Shown piece by piece: positions 1-64,000 of a stretch of DNA of 64,000 bases. Origin of the DNA: Parcubacteria bacterium C7867-008 (GTDB lineage: Bacteria; Patescibacteriota; Minisyncoccia; Phycocordibacterales; Phycocordibacteraceae). The first letter of the stretch is position 1; each line of letters opens with the position of its first letter. Made by a program: the position numbers and the translations under genes. The notes beneath the pieces were generated by a model. It was not told the origin of the DNA and did not search any database. It was given only the letters and a program-made list of their open reading frames with translations. The stretch spans positions 10,677 to 74,676 of the forward strand of contig LFCR01000002.1 in the NCBI GenBank assembly GCA_001189215.1, read 5' to 3'.

Positions 1-237
1 GGTTTACCGCAACGTAGCTGATGCGTGGGCGTACGGTACGAGAACGATTCTTACCATGTCCACGAAGTTTAGGCATCTTCTTGATGAGGTCACGCATCTC
101 AGGACGCTTCTTGTGACCAGCACGTGCATTCTGACCCTTGGTACCACGACCAGAAGTCTTTCCACGAGTACCGCCACGTCCGACACGAGCGGAAGTGATG
201 CGAGGAGTCTTGGGTGCGAGTGTGTTTATCTGCATAA
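1..237 (-). CDS. rplO: 50S ribosomal protein L15, N-terminal part (gene continues past window start)
   Basis: revcomp of 1-237 reads MQINTLAPKTPRITSARVGRGGTRGKTSGRGTKGQNARAGHKKRPEMRDLIKKMPKLRGHGK, the canonical L15 N-terminus; ATG at 235-237. Confidence 0.85.
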
Positions 238-244
238 AAATGTC

Positions 245-853
245 TTAGCCTTTGAGCTGCTTGAGTGCGGCGATGGTGGCGCGGGCGATGGTGAGCTTGT
301 TCTTAGAACGAGTCTGGATCTTTGCAATCACGTTGGTGACACCAGCGTGCTCAAGTACCACACGCATTGCTGAGCCAGCAACAATACCGCGACCTGGAGA
401 TGGAATCATCTCTACCGTGCTTGATGCATACTTTGCGTGTACCTCATGTGCGATAGAGCGTTCCTTGGTAAGAGGGACTGTGAAGAGTGCCTTCTTTGCA
501 GCACGTACTGCCTTATCGATAGCAAGTGCGGTATCTGCTCCCTTTCCAACACCAACACCAACACGTCCCTTCTTGTCTCCGATAACTACGGTAACGCTGA
601 ATGAGAAACGACGACCTCCTGCCATAACACGAGCAACACGACGTACTTCAAGCGTAGCCTGTTCGAACTCGCTGCGCTCACGGGGAGCACGTTCGCGAGG
701 ACGACCACCAGGACGTCCACCTGGGCGACCACCTGCACCGCGAGCACCGCGCTGCGGACGGGTGTCTGCAGGAGCTGCTTCAACAGGTGCAGCCTCAATA
801 GGTGCTTCGGTTGGAACGATCTCGTTCTCGGTCATAGTAGTAGTGTCAGTCAT
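245..853 (-). CDS. rpsE: 30S ribosomal protein S5 with Pro/Gly/Arg-rich N-terminal extension
   Basis: GGRRFSFSVTVVIGDKKGRVGVGVGKG and C-terminal S5 motifs; position between L18 and L15. Confidence 0.95.
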   Translation of the reverse strand: MTDTTTMTENEIVPTEAPIEAAPVEAAPADTRPQRGARGAGGRPGGRPGGRPRERAPRERSEFEQATLEVRRVARVMAGGRRFSFSVTVVIGDKKGRVGVGVGKGADTALAIDKAVRAAKKALFTVPLTKERSIAHEVHAKYASSTVEMIPSPGRGIVAGSAMRVVLEHAGVTNVIAKIQTRSKNKLTIARATIAALKQLKG

Positions 854-859
854 AAAATA

Positions 860-1204
860 TTAGAAAGCGAGACCTGATTCACGGGCAGCATCCGCAAGCT
901 TCTTAACCTGAGCAGCGTATGCATAGCCACCGCGATCGAATACGACCGTAGTGATGCCTGCTTTTACTGCACGCTCAGCAACCGCCTTCCCTACTGCAGC
1001 AGCCTGAAGGGTCTGTGCACCTGGGAATTCGCGGCCATGTGCAGCAGCAATAGTACGTCCTGCAACATCATCGATAATCTGTGCAGATACGAAACGGTTT
1101 GAGCGATGGATCGCAAGGCGTGGACGAACAGCCGTTCCAGAAACCTGAGAACGAATGCGCTTGTGTCGTCGTGCGCGAAGCACTTGTTTGCTGATAGTAG
1201 TCAT
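860..1204 (-). CDS. rplR: 50S ribosomal protein L18
   Basis: translation [17 protein letters not shown]...[28 protein letters not shown] matches L18; operon position. Confidence 0.95.
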
Positions 1205-1210
1205 AGTGGA

Positions 1211-1744
1211 TTAGACGGCTTTCTTGCCCTGCTTACGGCGGATTACTTCGTCATCATACTTAATACCCTTACCAAGATATGGTTCCGGTGGCTTGATTCC
1301 GCGTATCTCAGCAGCGAACTGGCCAACCTTCTGCTTGTCTGCACCCTCAATAGTCATTGTGGTCTTAACAACACCAACGGTGATACCTTCAGGAATCTTA
1401 ACTACAACTGGGTGTGAGAAACCAACTGCGAATACGAGCTCACTTCCCTTTAGTTCAACCTTGTATCCAACACCGTTAAGGATGAGTACCTTCTTGAACG
1501 GAGTCTCTACGCCCTGCATCATTGCAATAACGTGTGCAGCGAATGTTCCGGTTAGTGCCTTTGCAAGTTTGCTTGAGTTGTTTGGAGTGATGACAACACC
1601 TTCATCTGTAACATTGATAGAAATAGAAGAATGTACAGAACGAGAGAGAGTCTCCTTTGCTCCTTTTACGGAAAGCATGCCATCACCTGCGGTAACGGTT
1701 ACTTTTGAAGGAATCTGGATTGGTTTCTTTGCAAGACGGCTCAT
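1211..1744 (-). CDS. rplF: 50S ribosomal protein L6
   Basis: MSRLAKKPIQIP...two L6 repeats; ORF track extends to 1858 but homology starts at ATG 1744. Confidence 0.9.
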   Translation of the reverse strand: MSRLAKKPIQIPSKVTVTAGDGMLSVKGAKETLSRSVHSSISINVTDEGVVITPNNSSKLAKALTGTFAAHVIAMMQGVETPFKKVLILNGVGYKVELKGSELVFAVGFSHPVVVKIPEGITVGVVKTTMTIEGADKQKVGQFAAEIRGIKPPEPYLGKGIKYDDEVIRRKQGKKAV

Positions 1745-1754
1745 AAATAATGTA

Positions 1755-2147
1755 TTACCAGATCTCGAAGAGATTCTCACCTCCTGCACGTACCTTGCGT
1801 GCTTCCTTGTCTGTAAGGATTCCCTTTGGAGTTGAGATGATGCGAGCACCAAGACCATTCTTTACGGCATGTGCTTCAGTAGAAGAAACATAGAGACGAC
1901 GACCTGGCTTAGAGATACGCTTTACGTCAGTGATCTTGTGATTACCACGCGCATCATAGGCGAGAGTAACTTCGATCTGGAACGGTGCCTTCTTGGTAAC
2001 CTCAACACGCTCTACGAAGCCAAGCTCCTTAAGCTTGTTAGCAATCTCTTCAATATGCTTGGAATGAGGAGCAGACACCATCGTGTTACCGATAGCTCCT
2101 GCATTCTTTAGACGGATTATAAAATCTCCTACGCGGTCAGATACCAT
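1755..2147 (-). CDS. rpsH: 30S ribosomal protein S8
   Basis: MVSDRVGDFIIRLKNA...ISTPKGILTDKEARKVRAGGENLFEIW typical S8. Confidence 0.9.
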   Translation of the reverse strand: MVSDRVGDFIIRLKNAGAIGNTMVSAPHSKHIEEIANKLKELGFVERVEVTKKAPFQIEVTLAYDARGNHKITDVKRISKPGRRLYVSSTEAHAVKNGLGARIISTPKGILTDKEARKVRAGGENLFEIW

Positions 2148-2158
2148 ACAAAAAATAA

Positions 2159-2428
2159 TTACCAAGAAGCTTTCTTAACACCCGGAATCTTACCCTCACG
2201 TGCCATCTCGCGGAACTGGATGCGAGAAAGACCGAATGTACGCATATAGCCACGACCACGACCAGTGATAGCACAACGATTCTTGATACGTACTGGGGAA
2301 GAGTTCTTCGGAAGAGCCTGTAGACCTTCCCAGTCACCCGCAGCCTTAAGAGCCGCCCGCTTTTCAGCGTACTGCGCGACAAGCTTCACCTTCTTGGCGT
2401 TGCGAGCGATTTGGGATGTTTTAGCCAT
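2159..2428 (-). CDS. rpsN: 30S ribosomal protein S14 (long, non-zinc type)
   Basis: [13 protein letters not shown]...[21 protein letters not shown]. Confidence 0.9.
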
Positions 2429-2539
2429 ACGAAAAATAGCTCCGGAGAGCGTGCAAGTAATGTATCAGTTAGTATTTAGCGTGTCAAACAGCGGAGGACC
2501 CAGTCAGAACGAGTGTCTGATTGGGTCCCCTTGTTTGGC

Positions 2540-2890
2540 TTACCAGCTGAGGTGAATAGGTACCAGGAATGGTGCTTCCTGATCGATTTCGGACCGCGCA
2601 ATCGTCCTGAAAGTGGCCCGGACAGTAATCCCGACCTTTTGCACCTCCCGTATCAGCGCGTCGAGGAACTTCCGGAGCTTCCCCTCCACGAAGTGGCCGG
2701 CCTCAGACGTAAGGAACCAAATAACAGTTTCATCCTTTCCTGAGTCTGCTGCGGCCTTCTGATACTGAAGCAGATCGCTCGCGAACCACTCGCGGGCGAC
2801 CTGAACTGGATCCCGATCGTCGAGCTGGATCCCGATGGGATCTCCAGCTATCGCTGCGTCAAATATGTCAGGTGATTTAGTCAAGATCAT
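2540..2890 (-). CDS. hypothetical 116-aa protein inserted between rpsN and rplE
   Basis: uninterrupted ORF, visibly GC-richer than the flanking r-protein genes, no r-protein similarity. Confidence 0.45.
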   Translation of the reverse strand: MILTKSPDIFDAAIAGDPIGIQLDDRDPVQVAREWFASDLLQYQKAAADSGKDETVIWFLTSEAGHFVEGKLRKFLDALIREVQKVGITVRATFRTIARSEIDQEAPFLVPIHLSW

Positions 2891-2982
2891 ATCTCCACCG
2901 CTTATGTTTCAGTCTGTCAGCAGCTAACCATCTAAGTATACCAATGTCAAAAAAGACCCCTTTGCGGGGCCCTTTGTTTTTC

Positions 2983-3522
2983 CTATACACCAACCTTGAG
3001 TGGTATGCCGAGGTGTCGGTAGAAGGCTTCTGCCTCCTCCTTACCTTTTGCGGTGGTTACGAGTGTGATAGCAAGACCAAACACATCCTTGAGATCCTCT
3101 TCGCTTGTTTCAGGGAAGATGCTGTTCTCACGGATACCAATGGTGAGGTTACCCATTGCATCGATAGCACTTGCATTAAGACCACGGAAGTCACGAGTAC
3201 GTGGAAGTGCGATGTTTACGAGCTTGTCGAGGAAGTCGCGCATACGGTCCCCACGAAGGGTTACCTGGTATCCAACTACTTCACCCTCACGAAGCTTGAA
3301 TGATGCAATAGACTGGCGTGCAGCGCGCTCAGATGGCTTCTGGCCGGTGATACGAGCAAGACGATCTGCCACAACCTTGTTGCGGTTCTTGTCACGAGCC
3401 TTTCCAACGCCCGATGATACGACGATCTTAAGAAGGCGTGGTGCTGCCATCGGATTGGTGTATCCGAAGGTACCCTTGAGGGTATCGTATGCGTTCTTCT
3501 GCTTTTCTTTGGTAATAATCAT
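2983..3522 (-). CDS. rplE: 50S ribosomal protein L5
   Basis: MIITKEKQKNAYDTLKGTFGYTNPMAAPRLLKIVVSSGVG... typical L5. Confidence 0.95.
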   Translation of the reverse strand: MIITKEKQKNAYDTLKGTFGYTNPMAAPRLLKIVVSSGVGKARDKNRNKVVADRLARITGQKPSERAARQSIASFKLREGEVVGYQVTLRGDRMRDFLDKLVNIALPRTRDFRGLNASAIDAMGNLTIGIRENSIFPETSEEDLKDVFGLAITLVTTAKGKEEAEAFYRHLGIPLKVGV

Positions 3523-3532
3523 AAAAGTGTAA

Positions 3533-3850
3533 TTACGAGAGTGTCGTGTTGCTCTTCTTTGCTACACGAACCATCTTTCCGTCTTCCTTAGTACGAGCAA
3601 TGCGAGTTCCCTTCTTGCTCTTAGGATCGAGGAACATAACGTTAGATGCATCAATAGCACGTGGACGCTCAACGATAGAGCCAGACTGCTGTCCGCCGCG
3701 ACCACCCTTGAGGTGACGCTTTACGAGTGCAACACCGTCAATAACCACCTGACCAGTTGCAGGAAGTGCACGAGTGATAGTGCCAGTACGGCCCTTATCC
3801 TTTCCTGATACTACGATCACCTGATCTCCTTTTTTGAGTTTCATCTTCAT
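3533..3850 (-). CDS. rplX: 50S ribosomal protein L24
   Basis: KLKKGDQVIVVSGKDKGRTGTI KOW motif. Confidence 0.9.
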   Translation of the reverse strand: MKMKLKKGDQVIVVSGKDKGRTGTITRALPATGQVVIDGVALVKRHLKGGRGGQQSGSIVERPRAIDASNVMFLDPKSKKGTRIARTKEDGKMVRVAKKSNTTLS

Positions 3851-60297: not shown

Positions 60298-60324
60298 TTA
60301 CCGTAACGCACTGTAGTAAATTTG

Positions 60325-60395
60325 TGCGGGATAGGAGAATCGAACTCCTGTCTGCTCTTTGGAAGAGAGCCATTTTACCATTAAACTAATCCCGC
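60325..60395 (-). tRNA. tRNA-Gly (anticodon UCC); no encoded CCA
   Basis: revcomp GCGGGAT TA ... GCTCT-CTTCCAA-AGAGC ... AGGAG-TTCGATT-CTCCT-ATCCCGC-A folds as a cloverleaf with 7-bp acceptor stem, U33, TTCGATT T-loop. Confidence 0.85.
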
Positions 60396-61066
60396 TCTTT
60401 TATTTTCTCTAACGCTACCTCACTCCAAACCTGAATCTTTCTCGCGAATCTTACCCCGAATTCCTTTCTTCCACGAGCCCGTACATTTATATGCAGGGTT
60501 CCAAATGGAAGCTTTTTAAATGTCCTGTTCTTCTTTTTGCTTCTTAGATCAAGAATAGTCTTTTGGAACTGGGACTCTGGAATCGTAGTCGCTTGAGACC
60601 AAAATTGCAAACATTGAGAGTTATCTAGATCAGGATATATATACATACGAGCCGTAAATTGATCAGTCTCAACTCCCAACAATCTGAACCAAGCCACCAT
60701 ACAACGCATTACCTCAGGGTTTGAATTACTTACAGCGACTATTCCATTTGTTTTTGACCCTTCACCTAAGTAGATCGCGAGTCCAAATATGAATAAATCT
60801 CTATTGGTTATTTCACCAATTTCCACTAAAACAGTCTCGCGTAATTCATTTAGCTCCGTTTTGAGTACTTGTGCTCGTTTTTCTCCCGCAGCTGCTCTCG
60901 CTTTTCCATAGAGTTTAATGACTTCTTCATTTGGTTTATATGGAACTTTACTCAGCCAATTACTTAGAGTGCTTTTAGGTATACCTAACTCCTTCGAAAT
61001 ATACAGATATGAATATCCCTGTTTTCGTAAATCAATTGCAGTTTCACGTGTTGGCAGATTATGCAT
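60386..61066 (-). CDS. HTH plus LAGLIDADG-like (degenerate) homing-endonuclease-like protein; 3' end overlaps the tRNA-Gly 5' end by 10 nt
   Basis: N-terminal HTH YSYLYISKELGIPKSTLSNWL; IFGLAIYLGEGSK resembles the LAGLIDADG dodecapeptide. Confidence 0.45.
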   Translation of the reverse strand: MHNLPTRETAIDLRKQGYSYLYISKELGIPKSTLSNWLSKVPYKPNEEVIKLYGKARAAAGEKRAQVLKTELNELRETVLVEIGEITNRDLFIFGLAIYLGEGSKTNGIVAVSNSNPEVMRCMVAWFRLLGVETDQFTARMYIYPDLDNSQCLQFWSQATTIPESQFQKTILDLRSKKKNRTFKKLPFGTLHINVRARGRKEFGVRFARKIQVWSEVALEKIKERD

Positions 61067-61143: not shown

Positions 61144-62379
61144 TTGAACGTTCTGTTGTACCCTACAGCTATGAAAGTGGTAGTTCTAGGGATGGTTGCT
61201 GCGCTGGTATTCAGTGCAGGGGCTGCGTATCTAGTATTCGTACCAAATAGCCAGAAGCCAATTCCTATAGCAACACTCACTGCTGCAGCTGGTTCCACGA
61301 TCTACGACACATCCAGTATCGTGGAACTGTTTCGTCAGCTGTTCGTTCTTCAACAGAAGGTGAAGGAACTGCAACCACCACTGGCGACTACAACAATTCC
61401 CTTTGCTCCCAACGTTGGAACGACCACTACAAGCAAGAAGGCTCCAGTAAAGGCCGTGAAACCTGTTGCGCCAAAAGTTGTGGCACCAGTGAACACAGAA
61501 ACGAAGCTTGGCCTTGCGCTCCCTAAACTACGCAGTGCAATCGTAAATATTGTCTGTATCCCAAACAAAGCAGGTACAGGGCTACGAGGTATCTCTGGTA
61601 CCGGTGTCATTATCGACTCACGTGGCATTATTTTGACCGTGGCACACGTTGCGCAGTATGAATTGATTGCAGCTGCACGTCCTGATCTCCTTACGTGTGT
61701 GGTACGTACTGGTAGTCCAGCTGCTTCTGCGTATTTTGCTAAACCTATATATGTTTCACAGGACTGGATTGATCGTAATTCGAAACTACTTTCCTCTTCT
61801 GATCCCCGTGGAACGGGTGAGGATGACTTTGCACTGCTTGCCATAACTGAAACAGCCACCAAGACTCCCCTGCCAGCCAGCTTCCCTTCTGTTTCACTAG
61901 CTAACAACACACCAACTCTCAAACAGGGTGTTGTTATAGGTTCGTATGGTGCTGAGTTTCTAAGTACAGAAACTATCCGTTCTGGCATATTCCCCACCCT
62001 CGTATTCGCATCCGTTAAAGATCGTCTCACCTTTGGTTCTCAGATGGTTGATCTGATATCTCTTGGTGGCGGGGCTGCTGCACAAGAAGGGTCTTCAGGA
62101 GGAGGTGCAGTGAACGAAGACGCGCAATTAGTTGGGCTGATCACCTCACGTTCTAACGCAGCAAACCTAAACGATCGCGATCTGCGTGCTATCACAAACA
62201 CTTACCTGCAAAGCGCATTCCGTGAAGAGACTGGTGAGTCTATAGACTCATTCCTTTCTACAGATAGAAAATCTCTGGTGAGCGATTATGCGTCTGACGC
62301 CACAAAACTCGGGGCCATGCTCGTAAAGGTAAACCGTATCACCAATCAGGTTTCAATCTCAACCCCAACAGGATTGTGA
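61144..62379 (+). CDS. membrane-anchored trypsin-like (S1 family) serine protease
   Basis: catalytic triad context TVAHV ... DFALL ... QEGSSGGGAV. Confidence 0.65.
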   Translation: MNVLLYPTAMKVVVLGMVAALVFSAGAAYLVFVPNSQKPIPIATLTAAAGSTIYDTSSIVELFRQLFVLQQKVKELQPPLATTTIPFAPNVGTTTTSKKAPVKAVKPVAPKVVAPVNTETKLGLALPKLRSAIVNIVCIPNKAGTGLRGISGTGVIIDSRGIILTVAHVAQYELIAAARPDLLTCVVRTGSPAASAYFAKPIYVSQDWIDRNSKLLSSSDPRGTGEDDFALLAITETATKTPLPASFPSVSLANNTPTLKQGVVIGSYGAEFLSTETIRSGIFPTLVFASVKDRLTFGSQMVDLISLGGGAAAQEGSSGGGAVNEDAQLVGLITSRSNAANLNDRDLRAITNTYLQSAFREETGESIDSFLSTDRKSLVSDYASDATKLGAMLVKVNRITNQVSISTPTGL

Positions 62380-63122
62380 TCTGAACCATGAAGTTCTGGG
62401 TGTACCCACGCTCTGCACGCCTTAACCCCATCTGAAAGAAGAATATGATCAAGTTGTGACCGTGAGAAATTGTGTGTCACTTTCCCTTTCAAAGGATTCT
62501 TAAGTTTCACACCTTCAAATCGTTCTTCAAACAAATCACGTTCTGGGTACCACGGTACCGCTTGTGACAGAGGTGCGCCAAGCAGCCAGTTAAGTATCTT
62601 CATTGGACCGTATTCAATCACATTGAAATCTCCACACACAATTGCTGGTAGCTCTGGCTGGATGTGCCCCACTACTGCTTCGAACTCCTGTGCACGATTG
62701 TGTGGGCCCCAGAGCGTTAAGTGCACTGAGAATATTCTTGTCAGAACACCGTTACCTAAATCAATATCTGCATACACGGCACCGCGCTCTGTTACAAAAG
62801 ACCACTGAAACATGCGCATAAATCCTATGAACAGCCGTGTATGTAGTGGAAATCCGAAATCGAAGAATTGCAAAGTTCCTTGATTGGCAATCGAATGTTT
62901 TGAAAGTATTGCTACATAATTCTTTTCTTGTCTTTTATCAGACATCAATCGTATTACATCTACATGATAGGTAAGATGAAAGGGCATCTTCTTAATATAT
63001 GCGAGAAGTTCTGGTGTTACTTCTTGCAAGCAGAGCACATCAAAATCCAGATTATCAATAAACTTGCACATTTCCTTGAACTTAGTGTTGTAGCAATAAA
63101 CGTTCCAGGAATATATTTTCAT
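62346..63122 (-). CDS. endonuclease/exonuclease/phosphatase (EEP) family protein
   Basis: CLQEV ... GDFN ... SDHNPV motifs. Confidence 0.75.
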   Translation of the reverse strand: MKIYSWNVYCYNTKFKEMCKFIDNLDFDVLCLQEVTPELLAYIKKMPFHLTYHVDVIRLMSDKRQEKNYVAILSKHSIANQGTLQFFDFGFPLHTRLFIGFMRMFQWSFVTERGAVYADIDLGNGVLTRIFSVHLTLWGPHNRAQEFEAVVGHIQPELPAIVCGDFNVIEYGPMKILNWLLGAPLSQAVPWYPERDLFEERFEGVKLKNPLKGKVTHNFSRSQLDHILLSDGVKACRAWVHPELHGSDHNPVGVEIET

Positions 63123-63229
63123 GTGTATTAAATAGTACTGCGCAAAACCGATAATTCAATGAAGTCTGTATTGAAAGGACCTTTCATAAATTACCGCAGT
63201 CTGGGTCGACGCTAGAACTTTACTGGCAC

Positions 63230-63565
63230 TTGACAACAAATGAGTACTGTGAGATTATAGCTATGGGTCGGAGGCACTCGATGCCGACCTGCCTTAGGCA
63301 CTTTCCCTAGGAAAGACGCGCCGAAAAGCCTCGATTGGACTTTGCTACCAGTAGCGTAAAGAAATAGGCACTACGTTGATACCGCTTGGGAAACCAAGCA
63401 AAGTTTGAGACGTGTAATTGTTTAGTCTAAGCACTACAGGAACGTTAAAAAGCGATTGACTGCATCCTAGGGCTGCTATCGGTCCGCTCATCAAAACAAC
63501 GCGAAACTCTACGGAGTCTCGCAACAAGGTCGCTACCTCACGGTGCGGCCTTTTTCTTTTATAAA
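63230..63565 (+). ncRNA. candidate structured non-coding RNA of about 300 nt, identity unresolved
   Basis: no ORF above 60 aa on either strand; TTGACA-17-GATTAT promoter-like hexamers at 63230-63258; multiple hairpins (one with a GGGAAACC loop); intrinsic terminator at its 3' end. Confidence 0.3.
63527..63565 (+). terminator. intrinsic terminator (GGUCGC-11 nt loop-GCGGCC followed by UUUUUCUUUU)
   Basis: seen in sequence. Confidence 0.55.
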
Positions 63566-63612
63566 GTTCGATACCTTTAGGCAGGGGTGGCAGCCTGGGA
63601 CGATGTTGGAAC

Positions 63613-64000
63613 CTATTTCACTCTGGCGATGAAATGAAACACATGCCAATGTTTCATTATTCCCGCGGCTGTAGGCTTATCTACCTCTTCCTCCTCAAAT
63701 TCAAGTACCGTTAGCTTTTCCAAAAGCTTTTCAGCTTCAGCACGGGTATGAAAGGTCATTGTGTCCTTTCCCTGCCACTCATCTCGGTCTCCAAAGAATT
63801 GGCCCGTGAAAATTCCACCAGTCTTTAATGATCTAATGATTTCAGACCATACTTTTTCAAATTGATCAGGGTGCAGGAATGGAAGGGTATATTGTGCATT
63901 TACGAGATCATATTCTTTAGCACGAAACGTAAATGACTCCATTTTCTCAACGACGTATGTAAATTTATCTGCTGGAAGTTTATCTGCAATTTCTGTCGCC
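63613..64000 (-). CDS. class I SAM-dependent methyltransferase, C-terminal part (gene continues beyond window end)
   Basis: open frame runs past position 64000 without a stop; translation AGIMKHWHVFHFIARVK end typical of a small MTase. Confidence 0.55.
   Translation of the reverse strand, partial: ATEIADKLPADKFTYVVEKMESFTFRAKEYDLVNAQYTLPFLHPDQFEKVWSEIIRSLKTGGIFTGQFFGDRDEWQGKDTMTFHTRAEAEKLLEKLTVLEFEEEEVDKPTAAGIMKHWHVFHFIARVK

Follow-up and report, generated by a model that had tools for sequence, protein, structure and literature searches.

A unit without open reading frames at the edge of a repeat-delimited cassette array in Parcubacteria bacterium C7867-008 as a candidate non-coding transcript

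The 64,000-nt stretch of contig LFCR01000002.1 of Parcubacteria bacterium C7867-008 (GenBank assembly GCA_001189215.1), hereafter the window, contains a region free of open reading frames (ORFs), 63123-63612, between the minus-strand gene of an endonuclease/exonuclease/phosphatase (EEP) protein (62346-63122) and the 3' part of a minus-strand methyltransferase gene (63613-64000). The larger part of this region, 63220-63587 (~370 bp), is flanked by two boundary repeats (63194-63219 and 63588-63613) of a cassette array, and it is interpreted here, with a probability of roughly 45%, as an orphan, strain-specific non-coding cassette transcript of ~300 nt. The sequence signals give good support to the presence of an ORF-free transcription unit of this length on the plus strand. 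The label of candidate non-coding RNA (ncRNA) of about 300 nt had been proposed in a preliminary description of the region, together with such possible identities as RNase P RNA, transfer-messenger RNA (tmRNA), 6S RNA or a lineage-specific RNA; it is reasonable but unproven. The discrete unit on the plus strand stands, while from the identities only the lineage-specific one survives, in the form of an unconserved singleton.

Transcription signals and coding capacity

The unit carries on the plus strand a putative sigma-70-type promoter and, ~300 nt downstream of it, an intrinsic terminator (Table 1), both of which were recovered much as they had been described before, namely as TTGACA-17-GATTAT and as a terminator at 63527-63565; an automatic terminator scan with the loop limit of 8 nt had missed the latter. 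When both strands of the window (128 kb) were scanned for promoters with at least 5/6 matches in the -35 hexamer and at least 10/12 overall, only 7 matches at 6 positions were obtained, at least two of which immediately precede the start of an ORF, and because of this scarcity and placement a chance origin of the promoter in a 400-bp stretch is unlikely. Its consensus is probably the one used in the organism. Downstream, a Shine-Dalgarno (SD) motif with a start codon, GGAGG-N6-ATG, sits 23 nt after the -10 box, the ATG at 63281 opening 9 codons only before a TAG at 63308-63310.

A second, terminator-like hairpin is found on the minus strand. Its segment 63500-63523 forms 9 contiguous pairs there, including one G.U, which on the plus strand is replaced by an A.C mismatch, and it probably stops the read-through from the methyltransferase cassette. 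Since the methyltransferase stop codon overlaps the boundary repeat, the last base of the codon being the first G of the repeat, and this hairpin follows at 63523-63500, the methyltransferase cassette would end its transcription inside the neighbouring ORF-free unit. The two terminators in 63490-63560 would thus be convergent and back-to-back, and the transcripts of the plus-strand unit and of the methyltransferase gene would overlap by ~70 nt.

The earlier statement that no credible ORF is present was borne out. The longest ORF of the region comprises 60 aa on the minus strand (63345-63527, with a TTG start), and the plus strand contains none that reaches 30 aa. The interval from the methyltransferase to the EEP was also left without a gene by JGI and by Logan, whose annotations of identical contigs are independent of each other. 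The codon-usage log-odds of the six frames range from -0.03 to -0.27, while the 5th percentile of the real coding windows of this genome is 0.045, and the 3-5 stops per plus-strand frame over ~87 codons are near the rough estimate for random sequence. The only long open frame, of 80 codons on the minus strand, gave 0 matches in a phmmer search against 1.84 billion representative proteins.

Table 1. Features of the ORF-free unit and its surroundings in window coordinates; promoter, transcript, hairpins and terminators are predictions
Feature	Position	Strand	Details
Predicted non-coding transcript, ~300 nt	63265-63560	+	delimited by promoter and terminator; no plus-strand ORF of at least 30 aa, no coding potential, no Rfam match
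Sigma-70-type promoter, TTGACA-17-TG-a-GATTAT	63230-63258	+	10/12 matches plus upstream TG; predicted transcription start near 63265
5' stem-loop GGGUCGG...CCGACC (63265-63290) and short ORF	63265-63310	+	encloses SD GGAGG 63270-63274, 6-nt spacer, ATG 63281
Central irregular long hairpin	63348-63440	+	6-bp stem cap with GAAA (GNRA) tetraloop, 63384-63399
Intrinsic terminator of the plus-strand unit	63526-63560	+	stem AAGGUCGC...GCGGCCUU at 63526-63552, then UUUCUUUU T-run to 63560; -15.8 kcal/mol, z -3.99
Terminator-like hairpin	63490-63523 (hairpin 63523-63500)	-	TTGTTTTGAT tail; -13.7 kcal/mol, z -4.4
Boundary repeat R5, GGTTCCAACATCGTCCCAGGCTGCCA	63588-63613	-	25/26 matches; 0/100 shuffles matched
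Boundary repeat R6, degenerate, AGTTCTAGCGTCGACCCAGACTGCGG	63194-63219	-	19/26 matches to array motif; fuzzy motif search; equals L003 3086-3111
Methyltransferase gene, S-adenosylmethionine-dependent, 3' part	63613-64000	-	neighbouring cassette gene; 194 aa in full contig; equals P0121 of Parcubacteria bacterium C7867-008, 100% identical
EEP gene	62346-63122	-	Pfam PF03372, E 1.4e-19; core gene at the distal edge of the cassette array
Short EEP upstream region	63123-63193	-	only ~15 nt nearest EEP (to ~63138) align with relatives; blastn alignment with L001 starts at 63138

Predicted folding and known RNA families

The predicted transcript (63265-63562) folds with a minimum free energy of -94.9 kcal/mol and with z of -2.4 to -2.64 on the plus strand, and the minus strand folds less well (z -1.1 to -1.2; -1.14); most of this signal is supplied by the two 3' hairpins. 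The many stable hairpins mentioned in the preliminary description do fold, including that at 63265-63290, CUUUCC-CUA-GGAAAG at 63301-63315 and GCUUGG-GAAA-CCAAGC at 63384-63399 (z -4.3), but they exceed chance only in part, as the z of -1.15 for the transcript body indicates. The central hairpin reaches -28.5 kcal/mol and z -3.07 when folded as 63345-63445, and z -2.1 on the plus strand vs -1.85 on the minus strand as 63340-63450. An internal A-rich segment, 63358-63369 (AAAGAAAUAGGC), is complementary over 12 nt (92%) to the 3' arm of the terminator plus its U-tract (63548-63559), which may be an alternative structure or chance. Among the internal repeats of the unit, nothing was suggestive of a ToxI-like or CRISPR-like array.

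In the scan of the whole window with Rfam 15 at the gathering score tRNA-Gly alone was obtained, and ARAGORN likewise reported tRNA-Gly and no tmRNA. The covariance-model scan that had been recommended was carried to E<=10 on 751 nt (63000-63750), and no RNase P, tmRNA, 6S or signal recognition particle (SRP) RNA was matched, the output being noise only (MIR396; ctRNA on the terminator). The RNase P models covered were RNaseP_bact_a/b, archaeal, nuclear and type T, and none of them matched at the gathering score or at E<=10. The strings resembling the conserved regions CR-I and CR-V of RNase P RNA (AGGAAAG and ACAGGAAC) are present, as had been remarked, and the failure to build a P4 helix by eye was also right, the partner CGCGUCUU required by the CR-I-like AGGAAAGACGCG being absent from 63265-63560.

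Accordingly, RNase P RNA was rejected by the lack of a covariance-model match, of a P4 helix and of the unit at the syntenic site of the relatives, tmRNA by the ARAGORN and Rfam results in the window, and 6S and SRP RNA by the lack of an Rfam match at E<=10; the first three had been among the suggested identities and are not supported. Furthermore, because the unit is missing from the syntenic site in every related genome examined, a housekeeping RNA is ruled against. The preliminary description had itself counted the lack of a covariance-model match and of conservation in relatives as evidence against an ncRNA, and both were found here.

Position of the unit in an inserted array

The homologues of the EEP in the metagenome-assembled genomes of Parcubacteria are 80% (L001) and 64% (L002) identical, with the synteny to a protease gene and tRNA-Gly kept, and the homology with these relatives reaches only ~15 nt upstream of the gene (to window ~63138). 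The tRNA-Pro gene lies only ~55 nt from the EEP in L001, L002 and a 77% relative, and ~3.1 kb from it in L003 and L004, the contigs that are 100% identical to the window and reach 2.3 kb past its end; because of this difference, the ORF-free region is regarded as a part of an insertion that the relatives do not have. The insertion is an array of ~3 kb between tRNA-Pro and the EEP, with the ORF-free unit as its tRNA-distal member. In L003, where the array spans 93-3111, it consists of six units separated by a direct ~30-nt repeat, GGTTCCAACATCGTCCCAGACTGCCAGC. They carry one gene similar to histidine phosphatases, three small ones whose function is unknown, and the methyltransferase gene, followed by the ORF-free unit as the last. 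Five repeat copies in L003 have at most 2 mismatches to a 28-nt core and at most 1 over the first 26 nt, and a site similar to the 3' end of tRNA-Gln, GGTTCGATCCCTAGTCTCCCAGCAA, stands directly after tRNA-Pro. In the window the repeat occurs once with at most 3 mismatches, at the array.

Relatives anchored by the EEP were found via the genome collection and by exact-protein look-ups of the EEP relatives of 100-77% identity. The syntenic sites of L001, L002, L005, L008, L012 and L015 lack the unit, and blastn and nhmmer with the unit detected no homologue in L001/L002 and the EEP-anchored L005-L015, the comparison covering the tRNA-Pro-to-EEP region and not whole genomes. Other contents were found at the same site, with the same repeat in L008, with a degenerate repeat in L005, and, in L012/L013, in the form of a single small membrane ORF with no detectable repeat. 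The empty-site relatives L001 and L015 keep a degenerate version of the tRNA-Gln end, AGTTCGATAGGGTAGTATCAAC, 25 nt upstream of the EEP.

The search for copies of the unit elsewhere was equally negative. No match to the unit was obtained by blastn in phages and plasmids, and the two scans of viral contigs with 18- to 20-mers from the RNA gave one match, a phage terminator hairpin hit by chance; the array repeat had no match in viral contigs. The blastn search of the region against the window (word size 9, E<=1) returned the self match only, with no identifiable target complementarity. The only other copies are those of L003 and L004, contigs of the same population. A 74% homologue of the methyltransferase (L136) is located in a non-array context with another gene directly after it, as seen in the gene map only, the locus not having been searched with the RNA.

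Farther along the conserved EEP neighbourhood, the stop end of a 226-aa helix-turn-helix-domain ORF (60386-61066) and the 5' end of tRNA-Gly(UCC) (60324-60395), which are on the same strand, have 10 nt in common. In L012 the matching position next to tRNA-Gly also holds a gene of 226 aa, and in L008 there is none.

The repeat and its arrays in metagenomes

The scan of metagenomes with GTTCCAACNNNNNCCCAGNCNGCCA gave at least 120 stretches (loci L016 onward, such as L067, L073, L076, L106 and L132), many of the contigs having 2-10 copies; the counts of units, orientations, proteins and flanking genes given from here on hold among the matches listed. The copies are co-oriented within every locus, and the 126 units between them are mostly 220-1000 nt long (about 0.2-1 kb; median ~510 nt). 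The coding units number 73 in the repeat orientation and 44 in the reverse one (38%), and they are single small cargo genes, without a tyrosine recombinase or mobility genes of their own. Their diversity is high, as 122 unit proteins form 113 clusters, with NUDIX hydrolases (7) and acetyltransferase-like proteins (3) as the only recurrent ones, these family labels being judged by eye from the sequences and not profile-tested; no nucleotide-level sharing of units between contigs was seen. An ORF-free unit of 221 nt with a terminator is present in L069 (581-857).

In the logo of at least 228 distinct repeat instances, conservation is confined to one asymmetric block of ~33 nt, A.aaagGTTCCAACATCGTCCCAGACnGCCAGCaa, and no conserved partner is seen in the 45 nt to its left or right. 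The repeat is therefore not attC, being a single asymmetric block that has no inverted partner. A Xer/dif-like site was rejected by eye, for the arms are not palindromic; a repetitive extragenic palindrome or uptake sequence was rejected by the single copy in the window, and a sigma-70 promoter for downstream genes by the varying distance to -10-like boxes. Some of the reverse-oriented cassettes do take their -35 box, TTGGAA, from the repeat.

The tRNA-Gln or tRNA-Pro gene is located upstream of the arrays in at least 13 loci. In eight of them (L016, L036, L042, L074, L078, L096, L105 and L132) the array is downstream of, and co-oriented with, tRNA-Gln; in L079 tRNA-Gln is ~7 kb upstream, and tRNA-Pro is found instead in the lineage of the window and in L118. 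The first site was observed as a copy of the tRNA-Gln 3' end, GGTTCGATCCCTAGTCTCCCAGCA, after tRNA-Pro in L003 (5-120), L008 (2321-2430) and L005 (4250-4345), with similar copies in L008 and L005, and after tRNA-Gln in L016 (7773-7960) and L079 (8-130).

The genes flanking the arrays are ordinary chromosomal genes. Among 90 flanking proteins, Phage_integrase was found beside only 2 of ~60 arrays, many of the contigs being short, and no match to this family was recorded for any called gene of the 13.6-kb contig with the present array. The two are XerC/D-type tyrosine recombinases (Phage_integrase with a SAM-like N-terminal domain) in L118 (5434-6471, minus strand) and L019 (6297-7247, minus strand), the end of the L118 gene being 19 nt away from the final repeat in that array. 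In L106 a LOOT RNA (Rfam RF03000, 68 bits; 952-1065) and a reverse-transcriptase gene, RVT_1 (2662-3666), precede an array of five repeats at distances between a few hundred bases and 3 kb. The searchable literature yielded no account of the motif, nor of arrays of this kind in candidate-phylum bacteria.

Comparison with the coding cassettes

The architecture of the ORF-free unit recalls that of the reverse-oriented coding cassettes. A promoter of at least 9/12 on the reverse strand is present in 10 of the 44 reverse cassettes and in 1 of the 73 forward ones. In these ten strong-promoter cassettes the distance between the -35 box and the outer repeat end is 34-48 nt, 35 and 38 nt being commonest, and in the ORF-free unit it is 38 nt, with the promoter starting ~10 nt inside of the repeat. 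The nine strong-promoter reverse cassettes that were examined continue with a short leader, an SD-like element, a start codon and a terminator directly against the next repeat, whereas the plus-strand terminator of the ORF-free unit is separated from the repeat by 27 nt. In the forward cassettes examined (L003 and L008), the stop codon is at the repeat or a few nt from it. One reverse cassette, L076 1105-1489, has a promoter and an SD, its ATG-ACC-TGC-TAG is succeeded by an open frame of more than 50 codons, and it looks like a fresh nonsense pseudogene. This nonsense-mutated cassette still shows its ORF, whereas the ORF-free unit shows none, with the expression signals intact.

Interpretation and competing explanations

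On the non-coding interpretation, the plus strand would be transcribed into an RNA of 63265-63560 with the 5' stem-loop and the GNRA-capped central hairpin. If active, such an RNA would act locally: its last ~70 nt (63490-63560) would be antisense to the 3' end of the predicted methyltransferase transcript, and the whole of it to any array read-through toward the EEP, so that it might serve as a convergent or antisense insulator at the boundary between the array and the core gene. This would be analogous to the gene-less regulatory cassettes of Vibrio superintegrons (10.1101/2023.11.21.568050, also PMC11014356). In integron arrays, the oral ones included, cassettes that have no gene but show regulatory activity, as promoters or as antisense elements, are documented (10.1101/2023.11.21.568050; PMC6557892). 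As judged from sequence, the intact promoter, SD-ATG and terminator without residual coding signal, the bias of folding to the plus strand and the GNRA hairpin all argue for a non-coding transcript.

Several observations weigh against it. The unit is a singleton, not conserved in the relatives, metagenome loci, phages, plasmids and viral contigs searched; in particular, blastn, nhmmer and tblastx against 133 loci of ~700 kb (120 of them contigs with the array repeat, L003/L004 excluded) gave no homologue, and only the ~30 nt adjoining the repeat matched. One ORF covers more than half of the unit in 117 of the 126 array units (93%), which makes a protein cassette the likelier kind a priori. Once the two 3' hairpins are set aside, the remaining body of the RNA, 63265-63495, shows no significant structure (z -1.15). 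The SD-N6-ATG stands at the start position of the coding cassettes, like a vestigial gene start, although it opens only 9 codons. The unit is tRNA-distal, with the most degenerate boundary repeat (19/26), and presumably the oldest, distal material being the oldest in tRNA-seeded islands (10.1101/2020.12.28.424599). The role as a cis-antisense RNA or insulator is, moreover, drawn purely from the geometry. Apart from the missing homologues and the geometry, the same points speak for a dead protein cassette, which once encoded a small protein (up to ~80 aa) from the SD-ATG at 63270-63283 and lost the ORF, the promoter and terminator being left over without a selected RNA function, and a clearly nonsense-mutated cassette is present in another array, that of L076. 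This explanation, the main rival, is nevertheless somewhat doubtful: no residual open frame is left and codon usage is non-coding in all frames, tblastx against the array-bearing loci was empty (best E 0.19), and the neutral drift that erased the ORF should also have eroded the promoter, SD-ATG and terminator, all three of which are intact.

The other explanations have less in their favour. The ideal SD-spacer-ATG geometry, the same as in the coding cassettes, would also suit the mRNA of a micro-peptide, either the 9-aa MPTCLRHFP (63281-63310) or a 15-aa product of the ATG at 63263, with a long 3' untranslated region; this is quite improbable, because the SD and ATG are inside the predicted 5' stem-loop, 250 nt of untranslated region behind 9 codons are unusual, and ORFs of such size, here without homologues, are expected by chance. 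Very improbable is a small protein of the minus strand, from the 60-aa ORF with GAGG 9-12 nt upstream of its TTG: it is the longest ORF of the region and has the repeat orientation, as do 62% of the coding cassettes, but its codon-usage score of -0.08 is below the 5th percentile of coding windows, no protein matched the 80-codon frame, both gene calls omit it, a strong terminator-like hairpin covers its codons 2-9, and it ends 125 nt before the next repeat, unlike the forward cassettes of L003 and L008. The position directly upstream of the EEP on the map might suggest the 5' leader or promoter region of that gene, which the preliminary description had named as a possible refutation of the ncRNA. 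There is hardly any likelihood in this, since the relatives manage with ~55 nt between tRNA-Pro and the EEP start codon, homology starts only ~15 nt upstream of the gene, the signals of the unit are on the opposite strand, and the boundary repeat 63194-63219 intervenes. Finally, a divergent housekeeping RNA (RNase P, tmRNA, 6S or SRP), missed by the covariance models in a candidate-phylum lineage, to which the CR-I- and CR-V-like strings might point, is effectively refuted by the negative Rfam and ARAGORN results, the absent P4 complement, the lack of the unit at the syntenic site of six relatives and its location inside a strain-specific mobile array.

A broader interpretation concerns the array as a whole. 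It would be a system, not described before, by which Parcubacteria and other candidate-phylum bacteria capture cassettes without an integrase, seeded at tRNA-Gln/tRNA-Pro, with a conserved ~30-nt asymmetric site partly similar to the tRNA-Gln 3' end. The ORF-free unit would be its structured RNA cargo of ~300 nt, selected for a function such as the regulation or insulation of cassette expression or participation in cassette recombination. In this complete form the proposal is unlikely.

Small genomes are typical of the candidate phyla radiation, and classical mobile elements had been considered scarce in them. Taken alone, the ORF-free RNA is a low-priority orphan, the description of which removes a false lead to RNase P, tmRNA or 6S RNA and adds one gene-less cassette with an apparently complete transcription unit. 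The cassette-array system may be more interesting than the RNA itself, for hundreds of varied units, each of a single gene, are set off by a highly conserved 30-nt site next to tRNA genes, on no fewer than 120 contigs from metagenomes. Should the units prove to be true mobile cassettes, they would provide a route of gene flux in the candidate phyla radiation that is integron-like in outcome, not in site or recombinase, and the ORF-free units would be a natural place for the regulatory or mechanistic RNAs of the array.

Comparison with known systems

The unit shares with bacterial RNase P RNA (Rfam RF00010 / RF00011) the length of ~300 nt and the two CR-I/CR-V-like strings, and differs from it in having no covariance match, no P4 helix and no conservation in relatives. 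With the orphan intergenic small RNA genes of bacteria it shares the sigma-70 promoter, the lack of an ORF over ~300 nt, the intrinsic terminator and the location on horizontally acquired DNA. The general features of such a gene, i.e., its own promoter and intrinsic terminator and no ORF, were found here, whereas conservation with covariation and identifiable target complementarity were not.

The array resembles the tRNA-seeded islands of the tycheposon type (10.1101/2020.12.28.424599) in starting just 3' of a tRNA gene and in the same orientation, in the first site being a partial tRNA copy (the tRNA-Gln 3' end), and in variable occupancy, with empty sites in close relatives. It is unlike them in its units, which are single genes of ~0.3-1 kb and carry no integrase and no modules for replication or packaging, in the internal repeat, a conserved 30-nt motif only partly like the tRNA end, and in the tyrosine recombinase found beside only 2 of about 60 arrays among the matches listed.

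As compared to integron cassettes, the site is asymmetric, of ~30 nt, and not the imperfect palindrome of attC (R''-L''...L'-R'), no integron integrase is adjacent, and 38% of the coding cassettes are reverse-oriented, about a quarter of these (10/44) with a consensus promoter and the nine examined with a terminator. Unlike the gene-less cassettes of integrons, the present unit has a strong terminator and hence cannot drive a downstream cassette. At the same time, co-oriented sites with short, mostly single-gene and diverse units, as expected of integron cassettes, were found here. With the ORF-less cassettes of integrons (PMC6557892; 10.1101/2023.11.21.568050), the unit has in common the short length of ~370 bp within a co-oriented, repeat-delimited array, the promoter signals without an ORF, the status of a minority (about 7% of units here, among the matches listed), and a possible regulatory or antisense effect on the neighbours.

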